Shown here: positions 743-27,357 of the stretch, in pieces
Layout: each line of letters starts with the position of its first letter
How positions within the stretch are numbered: position 1 is the stretch's first letter
Source: Candidatus Nanohaloarchaea archaeon
GTDB taxonomy: Archaea; Nanohalarchaeota; Nanosalinia; Nanosalinales; Nanosalinaceae
Assembly (NCBI GenBank): GCA_042218325.1
Contig: JBDGRE010000013.1
Location: forward strand, 1-64,000
Length of the DNA: 64,000 nt
Reading direction: 5' to 3'
Made by a program: the position numbers and the translations under genes
Notes under the pieces: generated by a model
Databases searched by the model: none
Seen by the model: only the letters and a program-made list of their open reading frames with translations
Told to the model about the DNA's origin: nothing

Positions 743-847
743 ACGGTAAGGTCTTTTTCTAACTCTTTTGAGTTTGATCCTCTTATCTAACTTGAAGTTC
801 GGATCCGTGACATCCTATATAAGACTGGGGAGCCGGTCTCTGGGACG

Positions 848-2769: not shown

Positions 2770-2771
2770 AC

Positions 2772-5235: not shown

Positions 5236-5851
5236 GAATCCAGAGAGTTTAGAAGACATAGTTGGCCATCAGGACAAGAAACCGACATTTCAGAAGTATA
5301 TTGAAATCGGTGAAATAGTGACAGACCTGATGTTTTCTGGGCCACCCGGAGTAGGTAAATCAGCAATAGCACAAATTCTACAAAAAGAAACTACAAGCGG
5401 TGAAATCAATAGGAGACGGATTGTGTGTGGAGAAACCAAGAATAAAGGGGAAGATAACACCCCTCGAAATGTGAGAGAAAAAATTGGAGACTCGTTGGAT
5501 AAACTGCCGTTAATGAATGATCCTCATAATGTTGTAATACTTGAGGAATTTGATAGCTTCAAGAAAGATGAACAGAAGAAATTCAAGGGCCTATTTGAGA
5601 GGGAAGGAAATGCCAGAATTATCCTCGTTACAAATCATCCAGAGGACATACCTGAACCAGTAAAATCTCGTTTCAAGCAGTTCAGGTTCTCAAATTTGGA
5701 AGATGAGGAAATAAGGGAACTCGCTAAAAGATTTGAAGAAGAAAAAAGTCTCGATGTTGAGGAAAAGACTGTAGAGCTGATAGTTAATAAAGCGGATGGG
5801 GATGCTCGAACAGCAATACAGGAGCTTAAAGAATTGAAGGCTCGTCTGTAA
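5216..5851 (+). CDS. Truncated RFC small-subunit-like AAA+ ATPase
   Basis: PESLEDIVG, GPPGVGKS, ILEEFD, VKSRF, GDARTAIQEL; lacks the C-terminal collar. Confidence 0.8.
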   Translation: MMEMAIENPESLEDIVGHQDKKPTFQKYIEIGEIVTDLMFSGPPGVGKSAIAQILQKETTSGEINRRRIVCGETKNKGEDNTPRNVREKIGDSLDKLPLMNDPHNVVILEEFDSFKKDEQKKFKGLFEREGNARIILVTNHPEDIPEPVKSRFKQFRFSNLEDEEIRELAKRFEEEKSLDVEEKTVELIVNKADGDARTAIQELKELKARL

Positions 5852-5993
5852 GACAATATAAGCTATTCAGAATGTAGAGGGATTTAAGGATCCAGAAGAG
5901 GAAAGTACATAAGATTTGATTACTTCACAATCATTACGGAATAGCGGAAAGCTACGGACATTTTATTTTAAACCGAATATAAAATTGATAATT

Positions 5994-7097: not shown

Positions 7098-7109
7098 GGA
7101 GGGGGATCT

Positions 7110-8189: not shown

Positions 8190-8229
8190 CATACACTATA
8201 ATTTGATTCATCGAAAAGCAATCTAATAT

Positions 8230-8916
8230 TCAGCTATTTTTATCTATTAATTCAAGTTCGTGGTAGAGTTCGTAGTAAGGGCCTACAAGGAGTCCAGAAG
8301 TGAAGAACCAGATATACTCCTCTATAGGAACTCCTAACCACAACATCCCTGAAAGTTGATCCAATAGGTAAGTCTGTTGGACAAAATCAGGATTATACAG
8401 GAGGAGTATCTGATAACCGACAATCGAGTAAGTAAAGGCTATCAAACCAGTCCCCAGAGACGCCTTAAGCAAATCTCTCCTGTAATAAACGATCAACATA
8501 GCCCCCAAGATGGACGAGATGCTCCAAGAAAGCCAAGACGGAAAACCTGACACAGTATAAGTCACGAAGAAAGAACCCAGAAACAGAGTCAGAACCATTC
8601 TCGTCCTACTCCAACCATCAGAAAACTTATCACTTTCCACTAACTCTTTCTGGAGGAAGAACTCATAACCAGCTATCAGAATACCTCCAATAGCGAAACC
8701 GAATATAAAGTCCTCAACACCGACAATAGTGCCCGTTACTGTCATAGGCCGCCACCAATCCTGCGTCCATAGAAAATATGAAGAACCGATAGACCACAGT
8801 CCTACGAAAACACCGAACTTTCTCATCTGATCCCGAAGATCCGTCCTCTTGTAATAGATTATGCCGTAAATGGCCAGCGTCATCAAACTGCCCAACAGAA
8901 AAGTATACTGATCTAT
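8230..8916 (-). CDS. Lycopene cyclase-domain membrane protein
   Basis: Two repeats ending VGVEDFIFGF and GVPIEEYIWFF; start uncertain (ATA at 8916 behind GGTGA, or TTG at 8895). Confidence 0.7.
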   Translation of the reverse strand: MDQYTFLLGSLMTLAIYGIIYYKRTDLRDQMRKFGVFVGLWSIGSSYFLWTQDWWRPMTVTGTIVGVEDFIFGFAIGGILIAGYEFFLQKELVESDKFSDGWSRTRMVLTLFLGSFFVTYTVSGFPSWLSWSISSILGAMLIVYYRRDLLKASLGTGLIAFTYSIVGYQILLLYNPDFVQQTYLLDQLSGMLWLGVPIEEYIWFFTSGLLVGPYYELYHELELIDKNS

Positions 8917-8918
8917 AC

Positions 8919-10013
8919 TTAATCACCTTTCTTTTCAGCAACTACCAAGATAAAGTTGCCTTTTGTTTTCCACCCATACTCCGGGTTTCCTGTTAAATCA
9001 TCTTCAAACTCTGACCTCTTCCACTTTATATCATATTCCTTTAATTGTTGTTTAAGAAAGTCTCTTGCTTCTTTCTCGGAATAATCCTTTTCTTGAACTT
9101 CTTTCTCCTGTGTATTTGGATATATTCTTTCTATGTCCGTTGCGAAGTCAAATATCAACTTTCCTTCGGTTTTAAGGACTCTGTCAATTTCTTCAAAAAC
9201 CTCTTTCAGAGTTTCTTTACCGAACAAATGTAGTGTTCCCGTACAGAAAACTCCATCGAAGCTATCTTTTTGGAATGGGAAACTTTCGGTCAGATCAAAC
9301 ACATTCTTCTCCAGATTCTCTCGTTGACTTTGCGATAAACTATTTGAGAGTTTGTTAAGAGCTTTCTCGTCTATATCTGTGGCCACCAGCTCGTCTACTT
9401 TTTCAAGTAGTTCAGGGGTGTATCTTCCATCTCCTGCGGCCAAATTAAGCCATTTACCATTTATTTCCTCATTTTCTATTGCTTTTAGGGTTTCTTCATC
9501 TCCTTCTCCCCAGATTGGACTACTTCTAATTTCCACATTTATCCAAGTTTCTGTGCCGAATCTTGGTTCGTCAAAAACCTTGATTTGGTCTGGCTCTATC
9601 TTGTAGAAGATAGAGTCGAGTTCCTCTAATTCTTCCTTGTTGGAGGCAAACTCTCCGAGTTCAGAGTATCTGTCAAGGTAGAGATCCAGAACTTTCTCTA
9701 CTTCTTCTACTTTTTCGGCTTTCCCAAATATTTGGAGACCTTGCTTATCATCCGTCCATTCCTGATGACTATCGTGAACATCCACAGCTACAGAGTCATT
9801 ATTTTCCAAGTTTTCTCCGTGTTCGGTGTCTGGAGGAGTTAGGATATAGAGGTTTAGCTCGTCATCGAAGGTGTAGAAACAGGTGTTGATATGTGGATCT
9901 TCACCTTTTACGGTCGCCATCGACAACAATCTGTTCTTCGATAAGATCTCTCTGATGCTCTCTTCAACCTCTTCTCTTGTCCAGTCGCCTTCATCCAGAA
10001 GCTCTATATCCAT
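8919..10013 (-). CDS. Pyridoxamine 5'-phosphate oxidase-like FMN-binding domain fused to class I SAM methyltransferase
   Basis: LLSMATV..PH..FY..HGENL..QGLQIFG; then WLNLAAGDGRY, ATDID, SFDGVFCTGTLH. Confidence 0.8.
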   Translation of the reverse strand: MDIELLDEGDWTREEVEESIREILSKNRLLSMATVKGEDPHINTCFYTFDDELNLYILTPPDTEHGENLENNDSVAVDVHDSHQEWTDDKQGLQIFGKAEKVEEVEKVLDLYLDRYSELGEFASNKEELEELDSIFYKIEPDQIKVFDEPRFGTETWINVEIRSSPIWGEGDEETLKAIENEEINGKWLNLAAGDGRYTPELLEKVDELVATDIDEKALNKLSNSLSQSQRENLEKNVFDLTESFPFQKDSFDGVFCTGTLHLFGKETLKEVFEEIDRVLKTEGKLIFDFATDIERIYPNTQEKEVQEKDYSEKEARDFLKQQLKEYDIKWKRSEFEDDLTGNPEYGWKTKGNFILVVAEKKGD

Positions 10014-10023
10014 TTGTCTTCAC

Positions 10024-10572
10024 CTAATTATGTCTGCTGTTATGTTCTTCTCCGAGCCCTTTCCTTTCTTCTATTTCTTTAAGTTGTTTCTTGACTGGTT
10101 CTTGTGGTACTTCTGATCTGGTGTAGGCTCCAGATACTTTGTAGATGTTCTCTGATTCTACTTTGAATATTTTCTTTTCAGATTCTCCAGCGTATTTCTC
10201 ATCGTAGTTCTCGAAGTATTCTTTCTGCTTTTCTTCATCTTCGAATCTCTTGCTGAAAAGCGTCCTAACCGAATCTTCCAAGTTTTCGTCCTCTAATATT
10301 TTGGCTTTAGCGTCTATCTGTATTCCATCTGCCTCTTCTGGAGGATTTGTAGAGTTATAGATTGATAAGGCAACCTCGCTGTTCTCTTGTATATATTTGC
10401 CGTGTCGAGAAGTCTTCAAAGAAACAAAGTAGAAGTTTAATTCAGGATCAACAGCATAGTATACAGCCGAGACCCACGGATTATCATCTTGGGAAATCGC
10501 TATATCCATATACCTGTTGTTCAGAAGCATTTCCACACATTTTTCGACCATTTCAGAGTTTTCTTCATTCAT
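10024..10572 (-). CDS. Pyridoxamine 5'-phosphate oxidase family protein
   Basis: PWVSAVYY..FYFVSLKTSRHGKYI..VALSIY..GIQI. Confidence 0.8.
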   Translation of the reverse strand: MNEENSEMVEKCVEMLLNNRYMDIAISQDDNPWVSAVYYAVDPELNFYFVSLKTSRHGKYIQENSEVALSIYNSTNPPEEADGIQIDAKAKILEDENLEDSVRTLFSKRFEDEEKQKEYFENYDEKYAGESEKKIFKVESENIYKVSGAYTRSEVPQEPVKKQLKEIEERKGLGEEHNSRHN

Positions 10573-10576
10573 AGTA

Positions 10577-10999
10577 TCACATAGAAATTTCGTGGTAGTT
10601 TGCTATCAGGTTTTGTAGACTTTCGTTTGAAGATTTCTGAATAAGTTCTTCTGGTGTGAGCCATTCGTAGCTGGTAATGTTTTCGTCTGCTGGATTGTCG
10701 GAAATATCGATTTCCTGCGTATCTATTTCTCCCTCGAATACTGTTAGAACTACTTGATCTCCGTCATCGTCAGCTCCTACAAAGAAATAGTACATTCCGA
10801 CTGGATCTCCTACCTCTACCTGTGTTGATAGTTCTTCCTGAATTTCTCTTTCCAGAGTTTTCACGGGTTCTTCGCCGTATTCGACTTTGCCTCCCGGCAA
10901 CACCCAATATGTTCGATCCTGTGCCTCGGTTTTCAAAACCAAAATTTTGCCGTCCTTCTCAATCAGAGCCTTCACAGCAGGTTTAACATCTCTGCTCAT
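10577..10999 (-). CDS. NUDIX hydrolase
   Basis: LPGGKVEYGEEPVKTLEREIQEELS Nudix box. Confidence 0.9.
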   Translation of the reverse strand: MSRDVKPAVKALIEKDGKILVLKTEAQDRTYWVLPGGKVEYGEEPVKTLEREIQEELSTQVEVGDPVGMYYFFVGADDDGDQVVLTVFEGEIDTQEIDISDNPADENITSYEWLTPEELIQKSSNESLQNLIANYHEISM

Positions 11000-11052
11000 A
11001 AAGGAGAATTGAAATAAGAAATATTATAGAATTTAGGCTTTAAACCGATACT

Positions 11053-11436
11053 ATGGATGGCGTAGTTGTTGTAATTCGAGAAGGAGATAAGTACCTGATG
11101 GTTCAAGATGCCGAAGGCAGTTATGAAGGGAAATGGGCTCCAGTACACGGCTCTCTCGAAGAAGGAGAAACACCAGAAGAAGCAGGAATCCGAGAAGTAA
11201 AAGAAGAAGTAAACCTCGAAGTAGAACTTACTCAAGAAGACAAGATAACTAAAACGCCAGCAGATTACAAGACAGATGAACTCCACTGGTACCTAACAGA
11301 AGAATATAGCGGCGAAATACAGGTAGAGGAAAGAGAAATCAGCGACTACAAATGGATGACTTTAGACCAAATAGAAGAAAGAGAACTGCTCCCACAAGCA
11401 GAAAACTTCTTTCAGGACTACAAACCTCAAAGGTGA
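11053..11436 (+). CDS. NUDIX hydrolase
   Basis: GSLEEGETPEEAGIREVKEEVN Nudix box. Confidence 0.9.
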   Translation: MDGVVVVIREGDKYLMVQDAEGSYEGKWAPVHGSLEEGETPEEAGIREVKEEVNLEVELTQEDKITKTPADYKTDELHWYLTEEYSGEIQVEEREISDYKWMTLDQIEERELLPQAENFFQDYKPQR

Positions 11437-11443
11437 ACACATA

Positions 11444-11934
11444 ATGGACTTCGTCATAAGAACCAATTACTCTCAAGAATTAAAGAACACGATAGATTCA
11501 AAGGCTGAAAATAGACAAGAACTTTCTGAAATAAAGGACGAGTTCTACAAGCCCGAAGAAACTGATCTACCAGATTTCAGTCCACGAGATGTTATCATCA
11601 GAAAACGAACTTTCCCAGATAGGGAGACACTGGTCAAGATAAATATTATCCAGAAACCGACTGGCTACACCGATACAAAAGAAGATTTAGAGAGCCTTGA
11701 GGACTATGAAAAATGGGGCGAGTCGATTCTTACGCCGTAGAATATTAGTTGAAAATAGAGAACGAAGAGATCCCAATTCTCATAGAAACATTTGACTTCG
11801 GCAAGTACATCAAGATAGAATCGCCGTCACCTGAAATACTGGACAGTATTATCCAAGAACTCAATCTTGATGAAGGCGATATATTAGAGAAGAACTCGGC
11901 AGAACTGCTGGCCGAAAATATGAATAAAATTTAA
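11444..11934 (+). pseudogene. Disrupted CYTH-like protein
   Basis: Two consecutive fragments (98 and 61 aa) with DEFY, IRKR, FGKYIKIE; frameshift and TAG near 11720-11748. Confidence 0.45.
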
Positions 11935-11963
11935 GCACGAGTTCAATTTATAGGTCAAAAACT

Positions 11964-12713
11964 ATGGAAAAAGTAAACTTCACCAACAGTCGGGGACTGG
12001 AACTGGTAGGTAATTACTGGGAGTCGGACTCTGATGCCGCAATAGTGATGAGTCACGGATTCACAGGAGATAAGCACGAGGGAGGGTATTTTGATACCGT
12101 AGCAGAGGCACTGAATGAGAGAGGTTATAATGTCCTAACATTTGACTTTTCAGGAAGGGGAGAAAGTCAGGATGATGCGATAACTATAGAAAAAGAAGTG
12201 GATGATCTTGATTCAGCTCTCCAGTATCTTGAGGAAAATAAAAATATAGATAGGATAGGTCTCTATGGATATAGCCTCGGTGGACTTGTTTCGCTACGAA
12301 ATGACAGGCCGGAAATTGAAGCTATAGTATTAACATCTCCTGTTACAGCAGAAATAGAAGCTCTGAAACTCCAAAGTTTTGAGAAAGGTGACACATTCAC
12401 ATATCAAAACGGAGTCTATATCAAGCATAAGGAAGATGAAGTGAGAAAGGAACTCCCGATAGATGAGAAAATATCAGAAGAGGCAAATAAAATAGACCAA
12501 GACCAACTCCTATCAGACATCGAAACTCCTGTGTTGATTATTCACGGAGACCAAGACTCTGTGGTTCCTCTGGGAGACTCCAGAAATGCTGTGGAAAAAC
12601 TGGAACACGGAAAACTCGAAGTAATAGAAGGACTGGATCACAGCTACGACACCCACTACGACCAGATAATACAGAACGCCGAGAACTGGTTCAACCGATA
12701 TATGGAGCCTTAA
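11964..12713 (+). CDS. Alpha/beta hydrolase
   Basis: HGFTG, GYSLGG nucleophile elbow, HGDQDSVVP, GLDH. Confidence 0.9.
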   Translation: MEKVNFTNSRGLELVGNYWESDSDAAIVMSHGFTGDKHEGGYFDTVAEALNERGYNVLTFDFSGRGESQDDAITIEKEVDDLDSALQYLEENKNIDRIGLYGYSLGGLVSLRNDRPEIEAIVLTSPVTAEIEALKLQSFEKGDTFTYQNGVYIKHKEDEVRKELPIDEKISEEANKIDQDQLLSDIETPVLIIHGDQDSVVPLGDSRNAVEKLEHGKLEVIEGLDHSYDTHYDQIIQNAENWFNRYMEP

Positions 12714-12746
12714 TTTATTGAAATTTCGGGCATTAAATCTTTCTTA

Positions 12747-13601
12747 ATGCTTGATTGGATTGCTTTCGCACTGATCGCTACCTTTGCCTTCGGGTTACAG
12801 AATTTTGGTTACAAGATAGCGGCTGAAAGAGGCTGTAACAGTGCCACATTAATGTCCTCATTTATCGGCACCACGATTATTCTTTCTGCTGTAGCTCTTG
12901 TTGTGACTTGGAATTTCTCTATCAATAGCTTGTATCTGTTTCTGGCTTTTGCTGGTATTAACGCCGCATCCTTCGTTGTAAAATTCATACTGCGACAGGA
13001 GGCTTTGAAACTAATTCCACTGGTTATTGGTTTGCCTTTATCGAAGATGAGTGCGGCTGTCGCCGCCGCAATAGGAATACTTTTCTTGGGAGAACAACTA
13101 ACCCTGTTCAACTTCGCAGGAATCCTAATCTCGATGGCCGCCGTCTGGATACTATCGCAGAAAGATGATGGCGATGATATCAAGGACTTCAAGAAAGGAA
13201 TAACTTTGATGCTGGTAGTTGTACTGGCTGCGGCAATAGGTGACTTGGCGATCAAACTTGCTTCAACCGAAGGCAACAACTTCCTGTTCATAGTCACAAC
13301 CTACGGGATGATGTTCTTCCCGGCCCTGATGCTTCAAGAAAGGTTCAGCAGTATAGAGGAAGCGACCCAGAAATCTTCTTTGAAATGGGGAATAATTATC
13401 GGAGTTATCAACTTTGTCAGTTTCTCCTCGCTTTTAGCCGCCCTCCAAACAGGGCCTATGGCAATCATCTTCCCGATGACAACACTCGGAATCGCACTAT
13501 CAGTCGCATTAAGCGTAGGAATCCTGAAAGAAGAACTAACCCGGAAAAGACTCACAGGATTAATACTCGCCCTGATAGCTTTAATCCTGCTCAACCTCTA
13601 A
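12747..13601 (+). CDS. EamA/DMT family transporter
   Basis: About 10 TM helices in two repeats; ILFLGEQLT and ILKEELT motifs. Confidence 0.85.
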   Translation: MLDWIAFALIATFAFGLQNFGYKIAAERGCNSATLMSSFIGTTIILSAVALVVTWNFSINSLYLFLAFAGINAASFVVKFILRQEALKLIPLVIGLPLSKMSAAVAAAIGILFLGEQLTLFNFAGILISMAAVWILSQKDDGDDIKDFKKGITLMLVVVLAAAIGDLAIKLASTEGNNFLFIVTTYGMMFFPALMLQERFSSIEEATQKSSLKWGIIIGVINFVSFSSLLAALQTGPMAIIFPMTTLGIALSVALSVGILKEELTRKRLTGLILALIALILLNL

Positions 13602-13966
13602 ACATTCTCAACTAATTCAGAAAGAATTTCGACCAATTCTCCCTCTCCCTCATAACTAACGACTGTATCGGTAACTGCCGATAGCGAGCTTGAAGGATCA
13701 GCACTTTCTTGATAAATACATATTACAGGAACATCGTACATATCAGCCCAGCCAAGCTCTATGCCTAAACCAGTAGATGGCTCTGAAACCTCTCCTATCA
13801 TTAGATCACATTCTTCTCGGAGAAAAGTCTTGGAATCGAAGATTCCCTCCGAATCCTCGTGAGGAAAAACCAGATTGTGCTCCTCATACAACTTGCTATC
13901 CTTCAAAGGCTGGTAGAGACTGCTCTTGTAGTCAATACTGCTGGAATGCCCGACATAAATCTCCAT
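13598..13966 (-). CDS. Nucleoside 2-deoxyribosyltransferase/RCL-like protein
   Basis: IYVGHS..CDLMIGEVSEPSTGLGIELGWA. Confidence 0.75.
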   Translation of the reverse strand: MEIYVGHSSSIDYKSSLYQPLKDSKLYEEHNLVFPHEDSEGIFDSKTFLREECDLMIGEVSEPSTGLGIELGWADMYDVPVICIYQESADPSSSLSAVTDTVVSYEGEGELVEILSELVENV

Positions 13967-14021
13967 AGAAAAACACTTTAGAAACGAAATATTATAGGAA
14001 TTTCTGAATAAAAACTGTGTT

Positions 14022-14624
14022 ATGGCGGTCGGAACTGTTGACGCAATAGTATTCTACAAAGCCAGAGAAGAAGACAAAGAGTTCTTCCAAGAACTCAAAC
14101 AACAAGACAAAGAAAGACTGGCAGAACTTGGTGTAGACCTGACCGACTACGGCGAACCCGGAATCTACACCGTCCTAATCGAGAGAGGAAAAACACCATA
14201 CAAAGAAATGTTAGCCACAGCAGGAGGACACATAGAAAACGGCGAAACACCTACAGAAGCGGCAATAAGAGAACTAAAAGAAGAAACAGGAATCCAGACA
14301 GAACATCTCGAAACAGTAACAGAAGCAAAGGAAAACTTGGAACTTGTATTCGACCCAAGATACGATCCAGAAGACAAACTGCCCGAAGACGAGCCAGAAG
14401 AAATCTACCTGATCGATGGACTGGAAGACAGAGACGGAGAAGACTTCCACTACTACACCGCCGTATTTGACTACCAGCCAGAAAACCCTGACAGACGAAA
14501 CTTCCAGCTAAAAGGAGAGACAGACGCCGAAAAATCATTCTGGGTTCCATTACAGGAATTGCCGAAAATGGCTTTCACACAGCACAGAATCGTAGAATGG
14601 GGTAGAAAACAGTATGAAAGATAA
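14022..14624 (+). CDS. NUDIX hydrolase (ADP-ribose pyrophosphatase-like)
   Basis: TVDAIVF, VLIERG..PY, GGHIENGETPTEAAIRELKEETG, MAF..H. Confidence 0.85.
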   Translation: MAVGTVDAIVFYKAREEDKEFFQELKQQDKERLAELGVDLTDYGEPGIYTVLIERGKTPYKEMLATAGGHIENGETPTEAAIRELKEETGIQTEHLETVTEAKENLELVFDPRYDPEDKLPEDEPEEIYLIDGLEDRDGEDFHYYTAVFDYQPENPDRRNFQLKGETDAEKSFWVPLQELPKMAFTQHRIVEWGRKQYER

Positions 14625-15300
14625 AGAGTACAACGCAGTAATTTTCGATGTAGACGGCGTCATAGCCCAGACAACAGAAGACTGGGAATGGATGGACAAA
14701 GTATACCGACAACACTTTCCACAACCCGATAAAAACGGCTACAGCGACTGGGAAGAATACCTACAGGCATACGGCAAAATATTCAGAACTCTACACACAG
14801 AAACCGAAGACGGAGTATTCGAGGAAGTAGGGCTGGAAAATGAACAGGTGCTCGAAGCGTATAGTCAGGTTCAGGATAAGAAGAACCGTATAATGAACCA
14901 GTTTTCAGTCTACTCTGACGCTGTAGAACTATTGGAATACTTGAACGAAGAGGATTACACGGTAGCGGCTGTCAGCAACGCCAGAGAAGATAATGTCGAA
15001 CTATTCTTGGAGCAAAACGATTTGCTGAAATACTTTGACTATGTAACAGGAGTAAAGCTCGAAGACTTCAACAGTTTCAAACAGAGAAAGAAACCTAACC
15101 CTGCTATGCTTCAAGAAGCAATCCAAGAACTCGACCTCAACCCAGAAACAACAGTAATGATAGGAGATTCCTCAACAGACCGAGACGCCACCCGAAAAAT
15201 AGAACAACTCGACTACATCCATCTCAATAGAGGAGTGGAAGTAGATCCTGATGGAGAACAGACAATAGAAAACTTGAACGAACTCAAGGAGGTTCTCTAA
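14614..15300 (+). CDS. HAD-family hydrolase
   Basis: FDVDGV, VSN, KPNP, IGDS..D motifs. Confidence 0.9.
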   Translation: MKDKEYNAVIFDVDGVIAQTTEDWEWMDKVYRQHFPQPDKNGYSDWEEYLQAYGKIFRTLHTETEDGVFEEVGLENEQVLEAYSQVQDKKNRIMNQFSVYSDAVELLEYLNEEDYTVAAVSNAREDNVELFLEQNDLLKYFDYVTGVKLEDFNSFKQRKKPNPAMLQEAIQELDLNPETTVMIGDSSTDRDATRKIEQLDYIHLNRGVEVDPDGEQTIENLNELKEVL

Positions 15301-15303
15301 CCT

Positions 15304-15909
15304 ATGATGGTCAGCACCCATATTCTAATCGGGGGACTAATAGGATACCTTTTCTCAACTGCCATCTCTGTAAATCCAGTTACTCTTGCTTTAGCAGGAA
15401 TGTTAGGAGGTCTTATACCCGAACTTGATTTTCTGATAGGACACCACAGGAAAACACTCCACTTCCCATACAGCTATTTCCTCCTGTCAATACCTGTTCT
15501 CATTCTGATCCCTTTCTTTCAGGCAGAACTTTTGATATTGCTTGCTACCGTGTTAGTGTCGGCTGGCGTTCATTCGTTTATGGATATTTTCGCTGGAGCC
15601 GAACTCCGTTCTTGGGACGAATCCGAGTGGGAAGATACAGCAGTATATGACCATATCAGAGATAAGTGGATTCAACCCCAAAGAATAGCTTACGGAGGAT
15701 CTATGAGAGACTTTCTGCTCTCAACTATCTGCTTTTTCTCGACTATCTACCTGATAAATGATCCAAAAATTCTCCTTATCGCAACTGGACTGATAGTTTT
15801 CTCTGTAGCCTATACTATGGGAATCAAGAAAGCATCAGACGAAATAATAGATGGAAAATATGCTACTCTGAATGGATTTATACGATCAAAATTGAAGGCT
15901 CTTCTATAA
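15304..15909 (+). CDS. Membrane-bound metal-dependent hydrolase
   Basis: STH, IPELD, HRKTLH, HSFMD motifs with TM helices. Confidence 0.85.
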   Translation: MMVSTHILIGGLIGYLFSTAISVNPVTLALAGMLGGLIPELDFLIGHHRKTLHFPYSYFLLSIPVLILIPFFQAELLILLATVLVSAGVHSFMDIFAGAELRSWDESEWEDTAVYDHIRDKWIQPQRIAYGGSMRDFLLSTICFFSTIYLINDPKILLIATGLIVFSVAYTMGIKKASDEIIDGKYATLNGFIRSKLKALL

Positions 15910-15966
15910 TCTTTCAGAACTGCCGTGCCGCTCTTTTAAGCGGCTAAAAAATATATTTTCTTGAAG

Positions 15967-17010
15967 ATGACCGCTGACGACCTTCACGAGCTTGTCGACT
16001 ACTACGAGGAACAGGAGAAGTACCAGCCAATCACTGTTTACCTTCACGGGTTTGTGAATCACTACAAGGGTGACCTGTCCAAAGGGAGTATTGTACAGTA
16101 TCTGCGGTACTTGGCCTACCTTGACTTCGATCCTCTGGACGAGAATCCCGAACCAGAAGATGTCAAGATCGAAGATTTTCACCTTGACAGGCTACAGGAA
16201 TGGACAAGAGCCAAAGCCCGGAAACGGTTCGGAGAGTCAGGCGAGAAACTCAACTCCCGTAATAGGTTTGCGTATATGACATATTTGGCCTTGAAAAAAT
16301 ACTTGAAAATGGCAGATCCCTCGCTGTTGCCATACCTTCCAGACTCCGAACAGTTCGAGAAACCCTACAGTCAACCAAAGACGATATACTACAGCGAGAC
16401 ACAGATCCAAGACCTGATGATGGCGTCAGAGAACCGAAAGGTCTTCCTATCTATAGCCCTAATGTACTACGCAGGACTCCGTAGTTACGAGCTACTTCAC
16501 TTGACACCAGAATGGCTGGAGTTCAAAACTGATAGGATTGAGATAGAAATACCGCCGAAGTATGCCAAAGGTCAGAAAAATAACCAGACCTCTGAAATCA
16601 CTTTCCTCAAGAAAATCTATGGAGAAGACCTCAAGCAACACATTAAGGATCAACATAACTATGACGGAGACTATCACCAACTGGTGTCACAGTTGGTGGA
16701 TCAGGAGAGCTTCCAGCCCGTCTTCAACTACAAGGAAAACTCCCAGAAATCCTACAGGGAACTGATGAAGGAGAGATACGAACTGAACCAGAAGTTGAAA
16801 GAAACCGCCAAGAAAGCAGGATTCAACAAAGCCGAGAAAATATCCAGCCATAAACTACGCAGATCATTCATTCGGAAAGTCTATGATTCAACCAAGGATC
16901 TTTCCCGAACGGCACAGGTAGCCAGACACAAAAGTCCTGAAACCACACAGCAATATCTACATCTGGATAAAGAAGAGCAATTAGAGACCTACCAAGAAGC
17001 ATTTCTCTGA
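15967..17010 (+). CDS. Tyrosine recombinase/integrase with intact catalytic residues
   Basis: AGLRSYEL, AKG, HKLRRS, ARH, QQY; ends ~270 nt from the att site in tRNA-Thr. Confidence 0.9.
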   Translation: MTADDLHELVDYYEEQEKYQPITVYLHGFVNHYKGDLSKGSIVQYLRYLAYLDFDPLDENPEPEDVKIEDFHLDRLQEWTRAKARKRFGESGEKLNSRNRFAYMTYLALKKYLKMADPSLLPYLPDSEQFEKPYSQPKTIYYSETQIQDLMMASENRKVFLSIALMYYAGLRSYELLHLTPEWLEFKTDRIEIEIPPKYAKGQKNNQTSEITFLKKIYGEDLKQHIKDQHNYDGDYHQLVSQLVDQESFQPVFNYKENSQKSYRELMKERYELNQKLKETAKKAGFNKAEKISSHKLRRSFIRKVYDSTKDLSRTAQVARHKSPETTQQYLHLDKEEQLETYQEAFL

Positions 17011-17284: not shown

Positions 17285-17436
17285 AGCCCCGAGAGGGATT
17301 TGAACCCTCGACCTGCCCCTTGCTTGCGACCAGTTATATTCCCGAAAGCCATGTAAAGCATGGCTTAAAGCGCGCCGCACGGCGCTTTGGCTGGCGGTAC
17401 AAGGGGGCCGCTCTAGCCAGACTGAGCCATCGAGGC
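17285..17436 (-). tRNA. tRNA-Thr(UGU) with 77-nt intron at 37/38 (17321-17397)
   Basis: Acceptor GCCTCGA/TCGGGGC, anticodon arm GCCCC-CTTGTA|A-GGGGC, TTCAAAT T-loop, BHB helix CTTG/CAAG. Confidence 0.95.
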
Positions 17437-17492
17437 ACTGTTTTCGTGGTCGCGGAGAATAGTTAAATAACTGGAGCCTCCTCTCACCGTTC

Positions 17493-18458
17493 ATGCGGGA
17501 AGACCTTCATGTAACGTCAGACCTCTCGGATATAACGCCGGGGAAGATGAAAGGTTCTCGCGTCGCGGTCGGTTTCCGGCCCTCGGGAGAACTACACGTC
17601 GGCAACCTGCTTTCCATCGCCTACGCGGCGGTTATAGCTTCCGAGCTGGACCTGGAGCTCGACCTGATGTGCTGTGATACGGACTGGAGCGCGCATATCC
17701 ACGAGCAGCATATGCCCGGAGAGAGCGATGTCATGCGTCTGTTTTTCATGCGCGATTGCCCGTGCAACAGGCATGATGACATCGCGGAGCACCGTGTTGA
17801 GGAAATCGAGCCGTTTCTCCGCGGCCTGGAGCGGGAAACCAGCGGGGATGCGACTCCCGGCTACCTGTCAGACTTGCGCGGCGATGAGGGTTACAACAGG
17901 GCTCTCAGAGAGGTCTTGGAGAACATGGAACAGTTTGACAGGGTGTTCGGCGGCGGTTTCCGCAGGCGATACGTTTCCCCGGTCGTACCTGTCTGCGACG
18001 GCTGCGGCAACAGCCACGCGAAGGGCGCCGCGTACTCCCATGAATCAAGGGAACTGGTCGCGGCGTGCCGGAACCCGGACTGCCATAGGGCGTTCATAAG
18101 AGGGAGCTTAGAGGATGAGATAGGGGTTTACTACTTGGTCGACCCGGTAAGGGATGTGTCACGCGACGTGGCTGTCCATGTTTTCGGCGGCGATTACCGG
18201 GTCGCGGAGAAAGAGCAGAAGACCTCGAAGGTCGCGAAGGTGGCGAAGTTAACAGAGCTGGCCACGGGTGAAACGCCGGCCTACTTCCTCGCCCCCATGA
18301 CATCGGACAGCGAGGGCAAGCCTCTATCGAAGTCGAAGGGAACAGGCAGGACGGTCTCGGATATCGAAAATCTCGAAGGTTACGGCCGCGAGCTCGCGGA
18401 AAAGGTCTTGGGCTGGCTGGAAGAGGAAAAGAAACACGTCCAGCAGTCAAATATCTAA
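17493..18458 (+). CDS. Class I lysyl-tRNA synthetase-like protein, catalytic domain only
   Basis: RPSGELHVGN (HIGH), PVVPVCDGCG, GGDY, PLSKSKG (KMSKS); 321 aa with no anticodon-binding domain. Confidence 0.7.
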   Translation: MREDLHVTSDLSDITPGKMKGSRVAVGFRPSGELHVGNLLSIAYAAVIASELDLELDLMCCDTDWSAHIHEQHMPGESDVMRLFFMRDCPCNRHDDIAEHRVEEIEPFLRGLERETSGDATPGYLSDLRGDEGYNRALREVLENMEQFDRVFGGGFRRRYVSPVVPVCDGCGNSHAKGAAYSHESRELVAACRNPDCHRAFIRGSLEDEIGVYYLVDPVRDVSRDVAVHVFGGDYRVAEKEQKTSKVAKVAKLTELATGETPAYFLAPMTSDSEGKPLSKSKGTGRTVSDIENLEGYGRELAEKVLGWLEEEKKHVQQSNI

Positions 18459-18766
18459 GTTAAATCGACATCGGCGTCGTCGATGTCTGCGTCTGGCCCA
18501 CGGTCCTTGATCTCTCGCTTGGCCGCGTCCTTGATGCGCTTGACGTTGTTGCTGCGCCCGCATTCCGGGCATTCGATCCACCACGGCCGTGAACCCAGCT
18601 CCTCGCTGCGTTCGAACTCGTGGCCGCAGTACGGGCATTCCATGTGGTAGTGGAAAGTCTCGTTGTCGTACGAGAACATCTTGATACGTCCGGTCTCTTC
18701 GCCTTCGTCGTTCTCCAGCTTCCTGTTCGTGACGTACTCCGCCCGCTCGTAGTCTATTTCTTTCAT
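18455..18766 (-). CDS. Zn-ribbon protein
   Basis: CPYCG...CPECG. Confidence 0.7.
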   Translation of the reverse strand: MKEIDYERAEYVTNRKLENDEGEETGRIKMFSYDNETFHYHMECPYCGHEFERSEELGSRPWWIECPECGRSNNVKRIKDAAKREIKDRGPDADIDDADVDLT

Positions 18767-20573: not shown

Positions 20574-20843
20574 TTACTCCTCTTCGGTTTCTCCGTTTTT
20601 CTCGAGCTTCCGGGCGAGGAAGTGGTCCTTCTCCTCGAGTTCACGTATGGATTCGACGGCGAACAGGTAACCGGTCCCTATCATCAGCAGGCCGAGGGTC
20701 GCCGGCGCCATGTCGACTATGCCGACAAGCGGCAGCATGTTGGCTATCACGAGAAGCGAGCCGAGCGTGAAAAGCGTGAAAGAGGCCGCGACTTCCTGGT
20801 TTGTGCTCAGTTTTTTAAGTCCGAACCGGTCTGTTTCCGTCAT
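20574..20843 (-). CDS. Small two-TM membrane protein
   Basis: Two hydrophobic segments; overlaps the oapC stop. Confidence 0.65.
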   Translation of the reverse strand: MTETDRFGLKKLSTNQEVAASFTLFTLGSLLVIANMLPLVGIVDMAPATLGLLMIGTGYLFAVESIRELEEKDHFLARKLEKNGETEEE

Positions 20844-21223
20844 TCTAGCTCCTCCGTTTCCAGCTTCGCGTCTTCAGGGTTGAAGGCCGACGGAAGCTGT
20901 ATGTAGTAGTTGCCCTCCTCCCGCCTTATAACTAATGGTATCTCCTTGAGCAGACGGGAAACGTTTATCTGGTAGACGCCTTCCTCCTGTATGCTTATGG
21001 AGTCCAGGTCGAACTCGAACTTGATGTTCTCTCTTTCCTCGACGCCCTCGCGGGCCATCTCCTGTATCTCCTCGGTGACCTCCTCCCGTTCTTCCTCGGA
21101 CATCTCCCGGGCCCCGGCCTCCTGCTCGTACATGAAAAGCGAGGAACCGCACTCGCAGCCGTCGATAAGCTCGTCGCTCCCGTCGTCGTACATCTTGCCG
21201 CAGTTCATACATCTATGGGGCAT
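20840..21223 (-). CDS. oapC: Zn-ribbon protein OapC (DUF2072)
   Basis: MPHRCMNCG..GCECGSSLF, GVYQINV; synteny with oapAB. Confidence 0.85.
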   Translation of the reverse strand: MPHRCMNCGKMYDDGSDELIDGCECGSSLFMYEQEAGAREMSEEEREEVTEEIQEMAREGVEERENIKFEFDLDSISIQEEGVYQINVSRLLKEIPLVIRREEGNYYIQLPSAFNPEDAKLETEELE

Positions 21224-21375: not shown

Positions 21376-21765
21376 CTAGTTCTCTTCTTCCATCTTGGCC
21401 AGGAACGAGACGGTGTCCGGCTCTTCCTTGATTTTCTCCATCACGCGCGAGTTTCCCACTATCGTGAGGCCGCGCCGGTATCTCTCGTTCAGGAACCGGT
21501 CGTAGAACATGCTCTTCATCTTCTCGATGCGGGAGGCCTGTGCGTCGAAACCCATGAACTCCACGCCGGGGAAGTCCTCGTCGGCCTCCTCGACAGAGCT
21601 CTCGATAAGCTGGCGCTTTTCCTCCGGGGTCCAGGCTTCCTCCAGGACCAGGACGGCGTTCTCCTTGACCTTCTCGAGGACGAATTCCAGCTTGTCGTTG
21701 AACTCCTCCTCATCTGACAGCCTCTCCTTCGAGAGGAACTCTATAGTAACGCCGTCCTCGGACAT
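21376..21765 (-). CDS. oapB: OapB (DUF2073)
   Basis: LVLEEAWTPEE..LIE..DFPGVE..GLTIVG. Confidence 0.85.
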   Translation of the reverse strand: MSEDGVTIEFLSKERLSDEEEFNDKLEFVLEKVKENAVLVLEEAWTPEEKRQLIESSVEEADEDFPGVEFMGFDAQASRIEKMKSMFYDRFLNERYRRGLTIVGNSRVMEKIKEEPDTVSFLAKMEEEN

Positions 21766-22392
21766 CTAACTCAACCTTTCGACTATTTCCTCATAAAGTT
21801 TGTCTATATTGTCTCCCTCCTTTGCCGAGATCTCTATCACAGGGTGCTGCGGGAACGCGTCGCGTACACGCTGAGGGTCAGCCTCGTCCAGGTCGATCTT
21901 GTTCGCCACCACGAGGATGGGTATGTCCTTTGCCTCGAGGTTGCCGATGATGGTCACGTTTACCTGCGTGTACGGGTCCTCCGTCGCGTCGAATATCACA
22001 AGGCACGCGTCGACGTTGTCGAGGTACTTGATGGCCTCCACGATTCCCTTCGTGGCTTCTTTCGCGCGGCCCTTCGCCTCTTCCTCCTCCAGGCCGTGCT
22101 CGGTGAAGTCCTTGAAGTCGACGTTGGTGGAGATACCGGGCATGTCAAGCAGGTTCATCTCGATGCTCTGGCCGTCGGCCTCTATCGCGACCTTCTCCTT
22201 TTTCTCGACCGCCCGGGTCTCGTGCGGGACTTCCGATACGTTGCTCATCTCGTCACCCGTCAGGTCGAGCGATATCTGGTTCGCCAGCGTGGATTTCCCT
22301 GCGTTGGGCGGTCCGTAGATACCTATCGATATGTCGTCCTTTTCCGAGCTGCTGAAGAAGCTGTTCAGGAGTTCCCTTAGCCTCTCTATCAT
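21766..22392 (-). CDS. oapA: Era-like GTP-binding protein OapA
   Basis: IGIYGPPNAGKSTLAN, PHETR, DMPG, NKID, ISA. Confidence 0.9.
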   Translation of the reverse strand: MIERLRELLNSFFSSSEKDDISIGIYGPPNAGKSTLANQISLDLTGDEMSNVSEVPHETRAVEKKEKVAIEADGQSIEMNLLDMPGISTNVDFKDFTEHGLEEEEAKGRAKEATKGIVEAIKYLDNVDACLVIFDATEDPYTQVNVTIIGNLEAKDIPILVVANKIDLDEADPQRVRDAFPQHPVIEISAKEGDNIDKLYEEIVERLS

Positions 22393-23757: not shown

Positions 23758-24354
23758 ATGGAAATTCTTTTACTCATTTATCTGCTATTCCTGTGTATAG
23801 GTAGGGAAAGACGAAACGAACCTGAAGTAGAAGATATCAACCTTGAAGAGATACCCAGGTTCGGAATTCCTATAATCGGGATCTTTCTGGTTTATGCAGC
23901 TGTATCGGTCGGATTGAATGATTTGATGTTAAATCTGGTAATTGGTGGTGCTGGAGTTCTTCTGATAGTTATATTCGGTGTTCTATTCGGTAAAAAGTAC
24001 CAGGAAGAAGGTTTACAGGAAGCTATAGATTACGCTGTTACAGCACCTATAGAAGAGAAAGAAACGGAAAGTAAGTCTCAACCACAAGGTCAAACAACGG
24101 AGAAAACTCCCCCGGCACCTGAAAGTTTGAAAAATGAACTCTACTTTGAAAGAGCGGATAAGCAGTGTGAATGGTGCGGCAAGGACATAGATTCGCCCGA
24201 TGTTCACCACATTAAACCGCGAGAAGAAGGCGGACCTAACAAACCTTCTAATTTAATCGTTCTATGTCCGAACTGTCACAGAAAAGCTGATAGCGGAGTT
24301 ATCAGCCGTTCAAAACTAAAATACCAGGTAAGGAAAAATAGAGGCGAGGAATAG
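23758..24354 (+). CDS. Membrane-anchored HNH endonuclease
   Basis: TM helices then CEWCG..HHIKP..GGPN..SNLIVLCPNCH. Confidence 0.85.
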   Translation: MEILLLIYLLFLCIGRERRNEPEVEDINLEEIPRFGIPIIGIFLVYAAVSVGLNDLMLNLVIGGAGVLLIVIFGVLFGKKYQEEGLQEAIDYAVTAPIEEKETESKSQPQGQTTEKTPPAPESLKNELYFERADKQCEWCGKDIDSPDVHHIKPREEGGPNKPSNLIVLCPNCHRKADSGVISRSKLKYQVRKNRGEE

Positions 24355-24359
24355 ATACT

Positions 24360-24602
24360 ATGGGAGTTGTCAAACGTGATGGGAAATGGCGTCTCGAGAA
24401 GAAAAAGAAAGGTGTCTACCTAGTTACCGAGAGAGGTCAGCAAAAAGCTAAAATCATAACAGGAGACTATGAACCAGACGGACCTATGAATGATAAAAGA
24501 GATGACATGATGTCAAACGTAATAGAGGTCAAGGATTTTAACGAGGCCAAGAAAGAATTCCGTAGTTTCGTAGAAGGTGGTTCATCTCCAGGATTCTTCT
24601 GA
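24360..24602 (+). CDS. Hypothetical protein
   Basis: ORF in tandem after the HNH gene. Confidence 0.6.
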   Translation: MGVVKRDGKWRLEKKKKGVYLVTERGQQKAKIITGDYEPDGPMNDKRDDMMSNVIEVKDFNEAKKEFRSFVEGGSSPGFF

Positions 24603-24606
24603 TAAA

Positions 24607-24798
24607 ATGAGTAAAGATCCAGTTGAGACTGTTATTGAAGCAATTTCTGCCATCTTGATACTTGTAGTTGGACTAAAGATATTGTCGGGATTATTAGAGC
24701 AGGCTTCTATCTCTTCAGGTCTAAAATTGCTGATTCTAGGAGCACTCATTGTAGCAATTATTTCTGTTATCGCCGAGGCGATAGGTGAGGTGTCATAA
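24607..24798 (+). CDS. Small two-TM protein
   Basis: MSKDPVE.. with two hydrophobic helices. Confidence 0.55.
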   Translation: MSKDPVETVIEAISAILILVVGLKILSGLLEQASISSGLKLLILGALIVAIISVIAEAIGEVS

Positions 24799-24992
24799 TG
24801 GTTAGAGATATTTCTACCAAGACGCTTGCAGTCAGTCTTTTAGTGGCTGTAGTGGGAGGTCTCGTGGTTTCTATTGTAAGTGAGGTCGAATTAATTTTGA
24901 GAGCTGTTATTTTGGATTTGATTATTACTATTGCCTTGGCGGTTTACATCTTGTCAGAACCTTGGAACGATGATGAAGAATCGGAGACATAA
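24798..24992 (+). CDS. Small two-TM protein
   Basis: GAGGTG RBS, TAATG coupling, two hydrophobic helices. Confidence 0.6.
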   Translation: MVRDISTKTLAVSLLVAVVGGLVVSIVSEVELILRAVILDLIITIALAVYILSEPWNDDEESET

Positions 24993-25041
24993 TATCAGCT
25001 TTCAAAATTATTCCTTATGGGAATAATTTTGGTTCCGGGTT

Positions 25042-25470
25042 TCAGGATTTATCCAGTTCTTTCTCCACTTTCTCCTCCAGCCGGTCTATGATTTCTTCTA
25101 TTGTTTCTTCGTTCCTGTCGAGATAGTCTTGGTCTAGGAATTCTCGCCTGTAGTCGATGTCGTTTCTTAAACGCCGGAGCTGGTCCATCAGTTCGAGTTC
25201 GGACTGTGAGAAGTCATGGAACTCTTCCATGAAGCTTATCAGGCATTCTTGCGAGTAGGATTTGTAGCCTTTTAGGTTGACGAGTGCGGTTACGAGCTTT
25301 TTGATGACCTCCCAGTATGATTCGACTATGAGCGAGATGTTTTCCTCGTTGCGTTCCCGTCGATTGTTGTCCTCCAGTCTTATTCCTGCCATCTTAAGAA
25401 GTGACTCAGCTTCTTCGGGGTTAGGAGATCTTTCGTGGACTTTCTCTTATAGGCATTCTTCCCAGTTCAT
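25042..25470 (-). pseudogene. HEPN-like toxin with a 1-nt frameshift near the N-terminus
   Basis: ATG at 25470 overlaps the MNT stop; MNWEECL then TAA, and removing one base gives KRKVHERSPNPEEAESLLKMAG..; RNDIDY motif. Confidence 0.65.
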
Positions 25471-25994
25471 CTTTTCACCTTCAGGAAGCCTTTCAAGGTT
25501 ATTCCGTTCGCGGCACTGTTCGCGAATTCTGTGTTCGCGGCAAGTTCGTCCTCGGTCATGAACTGCAGGTTAATTTCTCTGTTGAAAGCTCCTTCGTATT
25601 CCGTGGTGTCGAACTCTTTCTCTCCTGCTACAATCAGGATGTCGATATCGCTTTCCTCTGTGTCTTCTCCGTTGGCTGCGGAGCCAAATAGCACTATACT
25701 GTTGGGATGGAATTTTTTCTCAATTTCTTCTACCAGGCCGGTTTCGTGGAGTTTTCTGACCTTTTCCAGTTTCTTGTATAATTTGAACCTCTCGCTCTTA
25801 CTGGCCTTGTAGCCGGGATAAGTTCCCTCTTCAACTTTCTCAAGGAAATCTTCCTCGGCCAGTTCGTTTACGTAATCTCTTACGGTGGGGAGAGATATTT
25901 CTGTTTCTCTGGATATTTCTCTCAACTGATGCTTGGTGGTAGGCTCCTTGAAGAAGGGCTGGAGAACCCTGTGTTTTGTGAAATCATCAAACAT
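25467..25994 (-). CDS. HTH plus minimal nucleotidyltransferase (MNT) antitoxin
   Basis: N-terminal wHTH; LFGSAANGEDTEESDIDILIV. Confidence 0.9.
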   Translation of the reverse strand: MFDDFTKHRVLQPFFKEPTTKHQLREISRETEISLPTVRDYVNELAEEDFLEKVEEGTYPGYKASKSERFKLYKKLEKVRKLHETGLVEEIEKKFHPNSIVLFGSAANGEDTEESDIDILIVAGEKEFDTTEYEGAFNREINLQFMTEDELAANTEFANSAANGITLKGFLKVKR

Positions 25995-26051
25995 GTTAGA
26001 AAAATATAACACATGTTATAAAAATCTATCGGCTGTTAGTTTTTGCTAACA
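25991..26051. promoter_or_regulatory. Palindromic operators upstream of MNT-HEPN
   Basis: TGTTAGAAAAATATAACA (25994-26011) and TGTTAGTTTTTGCTAACA (26034-26051), plus a degenerate middle copy. Confidence 0.6.
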
Positions 26052-26222: not shown

Positions 26223-26369
26223 AGTTCAGATTTGCTGACACAAAGACTTATAGCTATGGGTAACGCAACGGGACTGGTTCGTTAAGGGGTCGGGTTCCAG
26301 CTGCTAACAGGCGGTCTTTTGGCCGGGAGCTGCCGGAGAACGGATAGTGTGTTGAACATGTAGTGGGAG

Positions 26370-26579
26370 TGGACCGGCCCGGATTTGAACCGGGGATCTC
26401 CACGTTCCTGACGAACTTCTGAACTCGAAGACCGTAAAATCTTCTGTGACCAGCAACCTGAAGGTTGCGGGAGTTCGATCATCAAAAGCGGCGTTCGAGC
26501 AGAGCTCTCAACCGCTTTTGTGCGTTAGTTGGTGATTCGGTATCAGCGTGGCGCTCTAACCGAGCTAAGCTACCGGTCC
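26370..26579 (-). tRNA. tRNA-Ile(GAU) with 135-nt intron at 37/38 (26406-26540)
   Basis: Acceptor GGACCGG/CCGGTCC, CCACG-CTGATA|A-CGTGG, TTCAAAT, BHB helix CTGA/TCAG. Confidence 0.95.
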
Positions 26580-27225: not shown

Positions 27226-27357
27226 TGGGCCCGACGGGATTTGAACCCGCGACAACCGGCTGTCCTTGCAAAGATCGGGATCTTCTAGGTCGACCGCCTC
27301 TTGCGAGGAACCCGACGCCTAAAAGGCCGGCGCTCTACCAGACTGAGCTACGGGCCC
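27226..27357 (-). tRNA. tRNA-Lys(UUU) with 58-nt intron at 37/38 (27262-27319)
   Basis: Acceptor GGGCCCG/CGGGCCC, CCGGC-CTTTTA|A-GCCGG, TTCAAAT, BHB helix CTTT/AAGG. Confidence 0.95.

Follow-up and report, generated by a model that had tools for sequence, protein, structure and literature searches.

A short class I LysRS-like catalytic core that coexists with full LysRS in Nanohaloarchaeota and probably serves something other than ordinary tRNA-Lys

Introduction

What could a class I lysyl-tRNA synthetase (LysRS-I)-like protein that ends shortly behind its KMSKS-type motif be for in a cell which also owns the full-length enzyme? The question is raised by a 321-residue protein encoded at 17493..18458 (plus strand) of a 64,000-nucleotide stretch of DNA, called the window throughout (positions 1 to 64,000 of contig JBDGRE010000013.1, assembly GCA_042218325.1), from a Candidatus Nanohaloarchaea archaeon; the window is one contig of a 1.07-Mb genome that is 96% complete in 35 contigs. 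A first-pass annotation of this DNA saw HVGN and LSKS signatures as well as LysRS-like cysteine motifs in the protein and took it for a paralog with a new role, being either a new amino-acid ligase or one half of a split synthetase. Here, we report that the gene is intact, that its family is kept at short length and that its product is not needed for ordinary tRNA charging. We consider it probable that the short protein transfers an amino acid to an acceptor other than ordinary tRNA-Lys.

Results

An intact gene that ends behind the KMSKS-type motif

In the list of open reading frames (ORFs) of the window, the frame opens with an ATG, which is backed by alignment with 23 homologs, and runs uninterrupted until it stops 40 residues past S281 of the KMSKS-type motif. 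It is closed by a convergent ORF for a 103-residue zinc-ribbon protein (18455..18766, minus strand) that shares 4 nt with the end of the gene, and it lies divergent from a gene for tRNA-Thr(UGU) across a 56-nt spacer, so the layout described in the first pass was found in all its parts, as were the signatures and the four cysteines. The tRNA (17285-17436, minus strand; 48.4 bits by cmscan) has the anticodon loop CUUGUA, which reads as Thr UGU, and a 79-nt intron; ARAGORN missed it by default and miscalled it as Ala(tgc) in intron mode. For conservation we refer to two alignments, A1 with 24 Nanohaloarchaeota sequences and A2 with 36 members that are 19-31% identical to the window protein (59% for one other Nanohaloarchaeota row). 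The features of the locus are as follows.

17493..18458, plus strand: gene for the 321-residue stand-alone class I LysRS-like catalytic core (ORF, PF01921, homologs, hhalign, AlphaFold2 model, 1IRX match)
17595..17606, plus strand: HIGH-type motif H35-V-G-N38 (H35 and G37 invariant in A2, 36/36; N38 invariant in A1)
17994..18083, plus strand: Cys4 finger C168, C171, C192, C197 in the connective-peptide insertion (invariant in A1; at least 90% in A2)
18321..18335, plus strand: KMSKS-type motif P277-L-S-K-S281 (K280 invariant in A2)
17437..17492, no strand: 56-nt spacer between the gene and the divergent tRNA-Thr, with an AT-rich box TTAAATAA at 17463-17470

The box TTAAATAA is centred ~27 nt from the ATG and ~30 nt from the tRNA-Thr 5' end and might, we infer, be a TATA element shared by the tRNA and the gene, the latter with a leaderless mRNA. 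The guanine-plus-cytosine (GC) content of the gene is 58.8%, that of the core to its right 54.6% and that of the upstream island 41.5%, the gene resembling the core and not the island.

Of 159 homologs that a word-indexed search brought up, the best 120 are 300-345 residues long, share 55-100% identity and come, where named, from Nanohaloarchaea throughout; local truncation is thus not at issue. Nor did a six-frame scan of the phylum, with 30 matches in 28 genomes, reveal any internal stops or frameshifts. The earlier view that neither a frameshift nor a truncation had shortened the gene is therefore borne out.

A full LysRS and a complete class I set beside the short form

On another contig (C31), the host genome encodes a full class I LysRS of 539 residues, which scores 393.8 bits with PF01921 and matches 1IRX over its whole length (E 1.7e-120); the short protein is 24% identical to it over 176 residues. 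When the C-terminal 210 residues of this LysRS were searched against the host genome, they matched LysRS itself only, and a separate gene for a stand-alone anticodon domain was not found. The Pfam anticodon model PF19269 drew a blank on the host genome, too, yet this result is weak since the genome's own LysRS was also missed. All five other DPANN genomes with a short form have a full LysRS, which is class I in three (G070, G072, G074) and class II in two (G071, G073). With no anticodon domain to pair with and with a class II LysRS coexisting in two of these five, the idea of a split synthetase had to be given up.

A motif screen followed by NCBIfam models identified the other class I synthetases of the host genome, namely LeuRS (bacterial type), CysRS, TrpRS, TyrRS, ValRS, MetRS, ArgRS, GluRS and IleRS. 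The genome also holds GatB, GatE and two Asp/Asn-type class II enzymes (PF00152), and GatB, GatE and at least one PF00152 enzyme occur in four complete relatives, one with the short gene (G058) and three without (G032, G039, G065). The inventory covered class I plus GatB, GatE and PF00152. Since a full LysRS and a complete class I set coexist with it, the short protein is neither the housekeeping LysRS nor a stand-in for another class I enzyme. Two side observations concern this set: the host LeuRS (G000:C1:17699-20473, L065) scores 1047.9 bits with the bacterial-type model vs 316.8 bits with the archaeal one, and the complete genome G058 has one PF00152 gene vs two in the host genome (G000), G032, G039 and G065, the missing copy being that of ~480-500 residues.

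Profile and structure comparisons place the protein closest to LysRS-I

PF01921 (tRNA-synt_1f) matches the short protein with 37.3 bits (E 2e-9; residues 22-291 on profile positions 24-296 of 360), which is above its gathering cut-off of 27 bits and means that the likeness to class I LysRS exceeds chance. The LysRS equivalog TIGR00467 gave 18.1 bits, below its cut-off of 147.55, and the NCBIfam models for GluQRS (TIGR03838, NF004315) gave 12 and 18.2 bits at cut-offs of 250-277, while those for BshC or MshC did not match at E up to 10. Against a LysRS-I profile of 12 sequences, the family aligned by hhalign with a probability of 99.4 (E 8.4e-22) over 275 columns, residues 17-307 corresponding to LysRS 21-310. 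Searching the Protein Data Bank by sequence profile yielded marginal matches only (best E 0.06).

As for the fold, an AlphaFold2 (AF2) model of the protein (predicted local distance difference test, 77.5; predicted template-modelling score, 0.81) found 1IRX as its nearest structure both by Foldseek (E 1.9e-11) and by VIA-align (Z 18.8, root-mean-square deviation 3.3, 268 residues). Next in VIA-align came BshC (4WBD, Z 15.9), GluQRS (4A91, Z 13.2) and GluRS (1J09, Z 13.1), followed by CysRS, GlnRS, MetRS and TyrRS at Z of about 11, and the best 50 structural matches in each of the two structure searches were all class I synthetases or class I-like ligases. The first-pass annotation had left room for a fold that would match an already characterised family: it does match the catalytic domain of LysRS-I, and the protein is not a member of any characterised short family.

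In a quick maximum-likelihood tree of 57 catalytic cores, 45 short proteins fall on one side (Shimodaira-Hasegawa-like approximate likelihood ratio test, SH-aLRT, 89) and ten LysRS-I of Nanohaloarchaeota and other DPANN archaea on the other (99). Those short forms that come from Nanohaloarchaeota make up a single clade (100) among the DPANN ones. As this is a quick tree with two outgroups on long branches, we take just one point from it, namely that the split between the short form and LysRS-I is older than the diversification of LysRS-I within these lineages.

ATP motifs are kept, LysRS-specific residues are not

H35, G37, D221, G232, D234 and K280 are invariant in A2, and the four cysteines, P30-S31-G32, D62, R220, H229 and Y235 are conserved to at least 90%. 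The short form and LysRS-I have in common the motifs PSGxxHxGN, GCH...EH and DPxR, the Cys4 finger, the KMSKS loop and the proline that precedes the KMSKS strand, as well as a DxD pair (D62/D64 in the short form vs D71/D73 in LysRS). The loop reads PLSKS in Nanohaloarchaeota and canonical KMSKS in most other DPANN members. The finger cysteines, spaced CxxC...CxxxxC, pair with CxxC...CxxC of LysRS-I (C177, C180, C200 and C203 of the genome's own LysRS) and are predicted to form a metal site.

Opposite to this stands a set of residues (R44, E45, W221, K241, H243 and Y271 in the numbering of the genome's own LysRS) that are invariant in the 12-sequence LysRS-I alignment and are replaced in the short protein. 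R44 and E45, directly after the HIGH motif, are aligned without gaps to L40 and S41 (S41 being S or T in A1), and Y271 to A267, which is G in most short members. K241 and H243 from GK(D/E)H lie opposite GGDY where the alignment is gappy, and neither register retains them; W221 faces Y214, a variable position in the short family. Alignment to 1IRX gives E41, Y268, H240 and W218 as equivalents. To judge from these alignments, the ATP motifs are intact and the LysRS-specific residues around the putative substrate site are replaced.

Spread and constraint of the short family

Of 70 Nanohaloarchaeota genomes scanned in six frames, 28 have the short gene, and among the 28 genomes of high quality 16 do; gene-bearing members in co-culture are, by their source names, Candidatus Nanohalobium constans, Nanohalococcus occultus and Nanohalovita haloferacivicina. 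Searched exhaustively with HMMER, 1.84 billion cluster representatives yielded 68 matches, 53 of them with 306-407 residues and 13 being fragments below 300, next to single matches of 489 and 495 residues. The 495-residue match is a canonical LysRS with its anticodon domain. Distant relatives of 306-407 residues, 21-34% identical, are spread over Woese-, Pace-, Nano- and Aenigmatarchaeota, and a pattern scan of species genomes added 17 loci outside Nanohaloarchaeota, labelled as Woesearchaeota (eight), Nanoarchaeia (two), Pacearchaeota (one), Aenigmatarchaeota (one), uncultured Methanosarcinales metagenome-assembled genomes (four) and Campylobacterales (one). The Campylobacterales label (L037) is probably a binning error: the locus is syntenic with the one from Aenigmatarchaeota (L035) and their short LysRS-like proteins are 82% identical.

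Few members appear longer. Frames of 586 and 377 residues (L054, L051) were rejected as fused long forms, since their upstream sequence lies in a low-complexity, Arg/Gly-rich, high-GC frame and looks like an ORF-calling artefact. A 417-residue protein (L043, 2996-4249) and the 489-residue match (P0173) have N-terminal extensions, without a Pfam match as far as these were scanned. That of L043, a distant member, spans ~140 residues, looks helix-turn-helix-like by eye and may be a real fusion or upstream read-through. In phage and plasmid collections, tblastn with two members (P0124, P0147) found no match, and a look for RNA runs came up empty. By the ESM Atlas, short PF01921 clusters may also exist in bacteria including Saccharimonadota.

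Between the host genome and two complete relatives (1046238 and 948351 bases), identity is 68% and 62% for the short protein vs 65% and 74% for LysRS, similar values which imply that the short protein is constrained about as much as an essential enzyme. In genomes without the short gene, a remnant of it was sought by tblastn and nothing better than E 6 turned up.

Gene neighbourhoods

Downstream of the gene, Nanohaloarchaeota share a block that encodes the zinc ribbon, a 159-residue protein, OapC-like and OapB-like proteins, a GTPase, a NUDIX protein and a glutaredoxin. This block is whole in G032, G039 and G065, all of which lack the short gene, the latter simply being missing at the block edge, and tRNA-Thr(UGU) sits at the same edge with and without it. 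We therefore discarded the zinc-ribbon protein (18455-18766) and its 159-residue neighbour as dedicated partners. In G028 the block is kept, and the zinc-ribbon ORF was not recovered in our ORF map.

Outside this phylum, Pfam was run on 96 of the 100 ORFs that lie within three positions of the gene at the 17 other DPANN loci and at four divergent Nanohaloarchaeota loci; the remaining four are the aIF5B and PUA ORFs of L033, which was scanned separately, and L034, which was covered by BLAST clustering. A translation gene is no more than three ORFs away from the short gene in 11 of those 17 DPANN loci.

L027: gatD, a gatE-like gene and aspS
L029: gatB and gatD
L030: GatB_N protein
L031: L13 and S9
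L032, L033, L034: aIF5B plus a PUA-domain protein
L040: aIF5B
L035, L037: S2, and in L035 also aIF2-alpha and Nop10
L043: GluRS

Adjacency to aIF5B recurs in short members that are only 23-31% identical to each other, and the DPANN context, on the whole, points weakly to translation. A recurring biosynthetic partner was not found across the 17 other DPANN and 12 Nanohaloarchaeota loci, nor were thiol-pathway genes seen beside the short gene in the mapped loci. Sugar genes lie near some of them, an epimerase gene at L027 and genes for a family 2 glycosyltransferase and a GDP-mannose dehydratase at L039.

The wider window and genome

GC content is 41.5% over positions 1-17010 of the window and about 55% elsewhere in it; the low-GC block closes with a tyrosine recombinase gene (15961-17010; PF00589, 54 bits) beside tRNA-Thr. 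The block resembles a mobile element or provirus that has integrated at this tRNA, with the short gene on the host side; relatives have different genes on the tRNA-Thr side of the short gene. A second GC dip (43.1%) at 24001-26000 lies inside a region of 53-56%. To the right of the gene, a row on the minus strand comprises genes for OapC-like (20840-21223; PF09845) and OapB-like (21376-21765; PF09846) proteins and a small GTPase (21766-22392), and an MCM helicase gene follows at 38904-40892. Origin-associated Oap genes of haloarchaea stand in a similar row, and a replication origin may be close by.

By default, ARAGORN called zero tRNAs in the window, and in intron mode three, all intron-bearing, at 17285-17436 (Thr UGU), 26369-26579 (Ile GAU) and 27226-27357 (Lys UUU). 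Many of the genome's 43 tRNA calls have introns of 48-143 nt. One call, 'tRNA-Stop(tta)', was considered as an odd client tRNA for the short protein and dismissed, as it reads as tRNA-Leu(UAA) with an intron. Another, at G000:C18:22222-22411, is a tRNA-Ile with the anticodon UAU and a long intron, which suggests that AUA is read without the agmatidine route.

Discussion

Our findings are best accommodated, at a probability of about 0.55, by a functional stand-alone aminoacyl-adenylate-forming ligase whose substrate and acceptor have changed from those of LysRS-I, catalysis being predicted from motifs and fold. Hence, of what the first-pass annotation had proposed, the paralog with a new role is upheld by its length, the coexisting LysRS and the replaced residues, and the new amino-acid ligase is the best reading given the kept ATP motifs; the split half is not retained. 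In this proposal, an old split from the catalytic domain of class I LysRS would have given rise to a short enzyme which, besides its Rossmann core, retained both ATP motifs (HIGH and KMSKS) and, within the connective-peptide insertion, the Cys4 finger, and which lost the stem-contact, anticodon-binding and C-terminal domains. It would activate an amino acid at the expense of ATP, probably not L-lysine, or else lysine bound differently; the shift of specificity away from lysine is suggested because residues invariant in the 12-sequence LysRS-I set are replaced. The activated amino acid may then be passed on to an acceptor that is picked without anticodon reading, as the protein has no anticodon domain. 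With somewhat less than an even chance, we would prefer that acceptor to be an RNA of the translation apparatus, either a modified base within a tRNA, by analogy with GluQRS, or, by analogy with CysRS*, the 3' end of a tRNA dedicated to it. Equally tentative is a broader view that sees a DPANN-wide enzyme without anticodon domain and with a rebuilt pocket, which would transfer an amino acid other than lysine to a base of tRNA, to a dedicated tRNA or to a translation factor and be the first class I LysRS-derived paralog family.

Several points weigh against the ligase we propose and its link to translation. The gene is dispensable: 42 of 70 genomes do without it, among them the complete single-contig ones G032 (same genus), G039 and G065, and, as the block beside it is unchanged in genomes without it, the Nanohaloarchaeota neighbourhood reflects shared ancestry and gives no functional clue. 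The count of neighbouring translation genes is uncorrected for background, and such genes are dense in tiny genomes, with several of the loci being close kin. The replaced residues are ones we take to line the lysine pocket in 1IRX, a role that was not confirmed in the literature searched, and model confidence falls below 50 at residues 63-86 and 236-243, both beside the active site. BshC is the second-best structural match, with MshC (8HFN) also among the Foldseek matches. Nor is the family basic: its median isoelectric point is 6.3 (52 members) vs 9.0 for 115 neighbouring DPANN proteins, which lends no support to a nucleic-acid-binding surface. Finally, a suppressor or unusual tRNA was not found among the tRNA calls of the host genome, two odd calls being ambiguous.

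Some of these points favour a ligase that works without tRNA, like MshC/BshC or EpmA, in which the adenylate would go to the amine or hydroxyl of a small molecule (sugar, thiol precursor, lipid head group) or to a side chain of a protein. Taken alone, this first rival is less likely than not, and its small-molecule or protein acceptors come close to RNA in likelihood. It would fit with BshC as runner-up in structure (268 residues aligned), with a family that has no basic bias, with a patchy and dispensable gene as often seen in accessory metabolism and with sugar-nucleotide or glycosyltransferase genes near L027 and L039. It is at odds with the failure of any biosynthetic partner to recur in the other DPANN and the Nanohaloarchaeota loci compared and with a protein that, in sequence and fold, is closest to a true synthetase and has kept the connective-peptide finger. 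Moreover, its most obvious protein acceptor, aIF5A lysylated in place of hypusine, is removed by the presence of deoxyhypusine synthase (PF01916), which occurs in 48 of 70 genomes and, within the main family, in the host genome and 44 of 49 others with or without the short gene; we have therefore dropped that idea. An enzyme that stops short of transfer and makes adenylate or dinucleoside polyphosphates, or that binds ATP and an amino acid as a sensor, is quite improbable, even if the ATP motifs are kept and an acceptor-binding module is not evident. The connective-peptide insertion of class I synthetases faces the acceptor end, and strict conservation of its Cys4 finger would be hard to explain without an acceptor. 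Precedents for such activity exist in a review that lists LeuRS-I as a producer of leucyl-adenylate and multiple roles of LysU outside translation, starting with Ap4A (diadenosine tetraphosphate) synthesis (PMC9437257).

The two scenarios that would keep the protein within ordinary tRNA charging fare worse. Replacement of a lost synthetase, by way of a new GlnRS, AsnRS or CysRS for instance, could appeal to three related Woese/Pacearchaeota loci in which the short gene lies among gatD, gatE/gatB and aspS; it seems very improbable, however, in a host where none of the ten class I synthetases is missing and which also has GatB, GatE and a pair of Asp/Asn-type enzymes of class II, and GatB, GatE and PF00152 enzymes are found alike in the relative with the gene (G058) and in those without (G032, G039, G065). 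Least credible of all is a degraded or split LysRS, whether truncated locally, decayed to a pseudogene or serving as the catalytic half of an enzyme made of two pieces. That the protein has the catalytic domain only, and that some sources name short homologs 'lysyl-tRNA synthetase class I', might speak for it. Yet all close homologs are short (among the best 120 of 159), no stops or frameshifts interrupt the 30 matches, the full LysRS is present with a C-terminal part that matches nothing else in the genome, the two proteins are 24% identical with TIGR00467 at 18.1 vs 147.55 bits, and in G071 and G073 the short form coexists with a class II LysRS. So to our minds, the annotation 'lysyl-tRNA synthetase class I' for the short proteins is almost certainly wrong.

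In the literature searched outside subscription papers, we came across no account of a class I LysRS-derived paralog family. As far as their accessible text goes, a 2022 review of synthetase duplication names only LysU, PoxA and LysX, all class II-derived, as relatives of LysRS (PMC9437257), and AARS Online handles LysRS-I as a single family (PMC11580382). The family thus appears to be undescribed. It matters since loss of the anticodon domain in synthetase paralogs has repeatedly led to new chemistry, as with GluQRS and glutamyl-queuosine, EpmA and EF-P lysylation, or MshC and mycothiol, and since it is kept under constraint in minimal DPANN genomes, which shed nearly everything non-essential. 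Its patchiness among close relatives provides natural controls with and without the gene, and cultured co-cultures make the question testable. If the broader view given above holds true, ultra-small symbiotic archaea would harbor a still unrecognised aminoacyl modification of the translation apparatus.

Comparison with known systems

Class I LysRS (LysK; 1IRX; TIGR00467; PF01921) shares with the short protein the Rossmann fold, profile homology and motifs. It differs in having ~200 further C-terminal residues, which form the helical anticodon-binding and C-terminal domains, and in R44, E45, Y271, H243 and K241, invariant in its 12-sequence set and replaced in the short protein. In the quick tree, LysRS-I of the same lineages forms a clade separate from the short form, which is patchy and dispensable. 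GluQRS (YadB; 4A91, 1NZJ) is built along similar lines, being a class I core of ~300 residues that has a metal finger and no anticodon domain and exists beside a full synthetase, and its structures match the short protein at Z 13.2 (4A91) and 11.2 (1NZJ). However, GluQRS is derived from GluRS, whereas the short protein derives from LysRS, and the GluQRS models score it at 12-18 bits where 250-277 are required. GluQRS is bacterial and acts on queuosine, which archaea are not known to have. BshC and MshC (4WBD, 8HFN), the cysteine-adding enzyme of bacillithiol and its mycothiol counterpart, are small-molecule ligases that work without tRNA. Their class I synthetase-like Rossmann cores resemble that of the short protein, but BshC is 6% identical to it and, with ~540 residues, has extra domains.

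EpmA (PoxA, GenX), as the review cited above describes it, is LysRS-derived, has no anticodon domain, exists beside a real LysRS and modifies a translation factor (PMC9437257). Its fold is that of class II, and it beta-lysylates EF-P (elongation factor P), while the fold of the short protein is class I. CysRS* of Desulfobacterales is, like the short protein, a class I copy without anticodon domain, and it serves a dedicated tRNA (selC* tRNA-Cys) irrespective of the anticodon (PMC5389517). CysRS* adjoins its tRNA and selB*, whereas the short gene adjoins an ordinary tRNA-Thr that is present also where the gene is absent.

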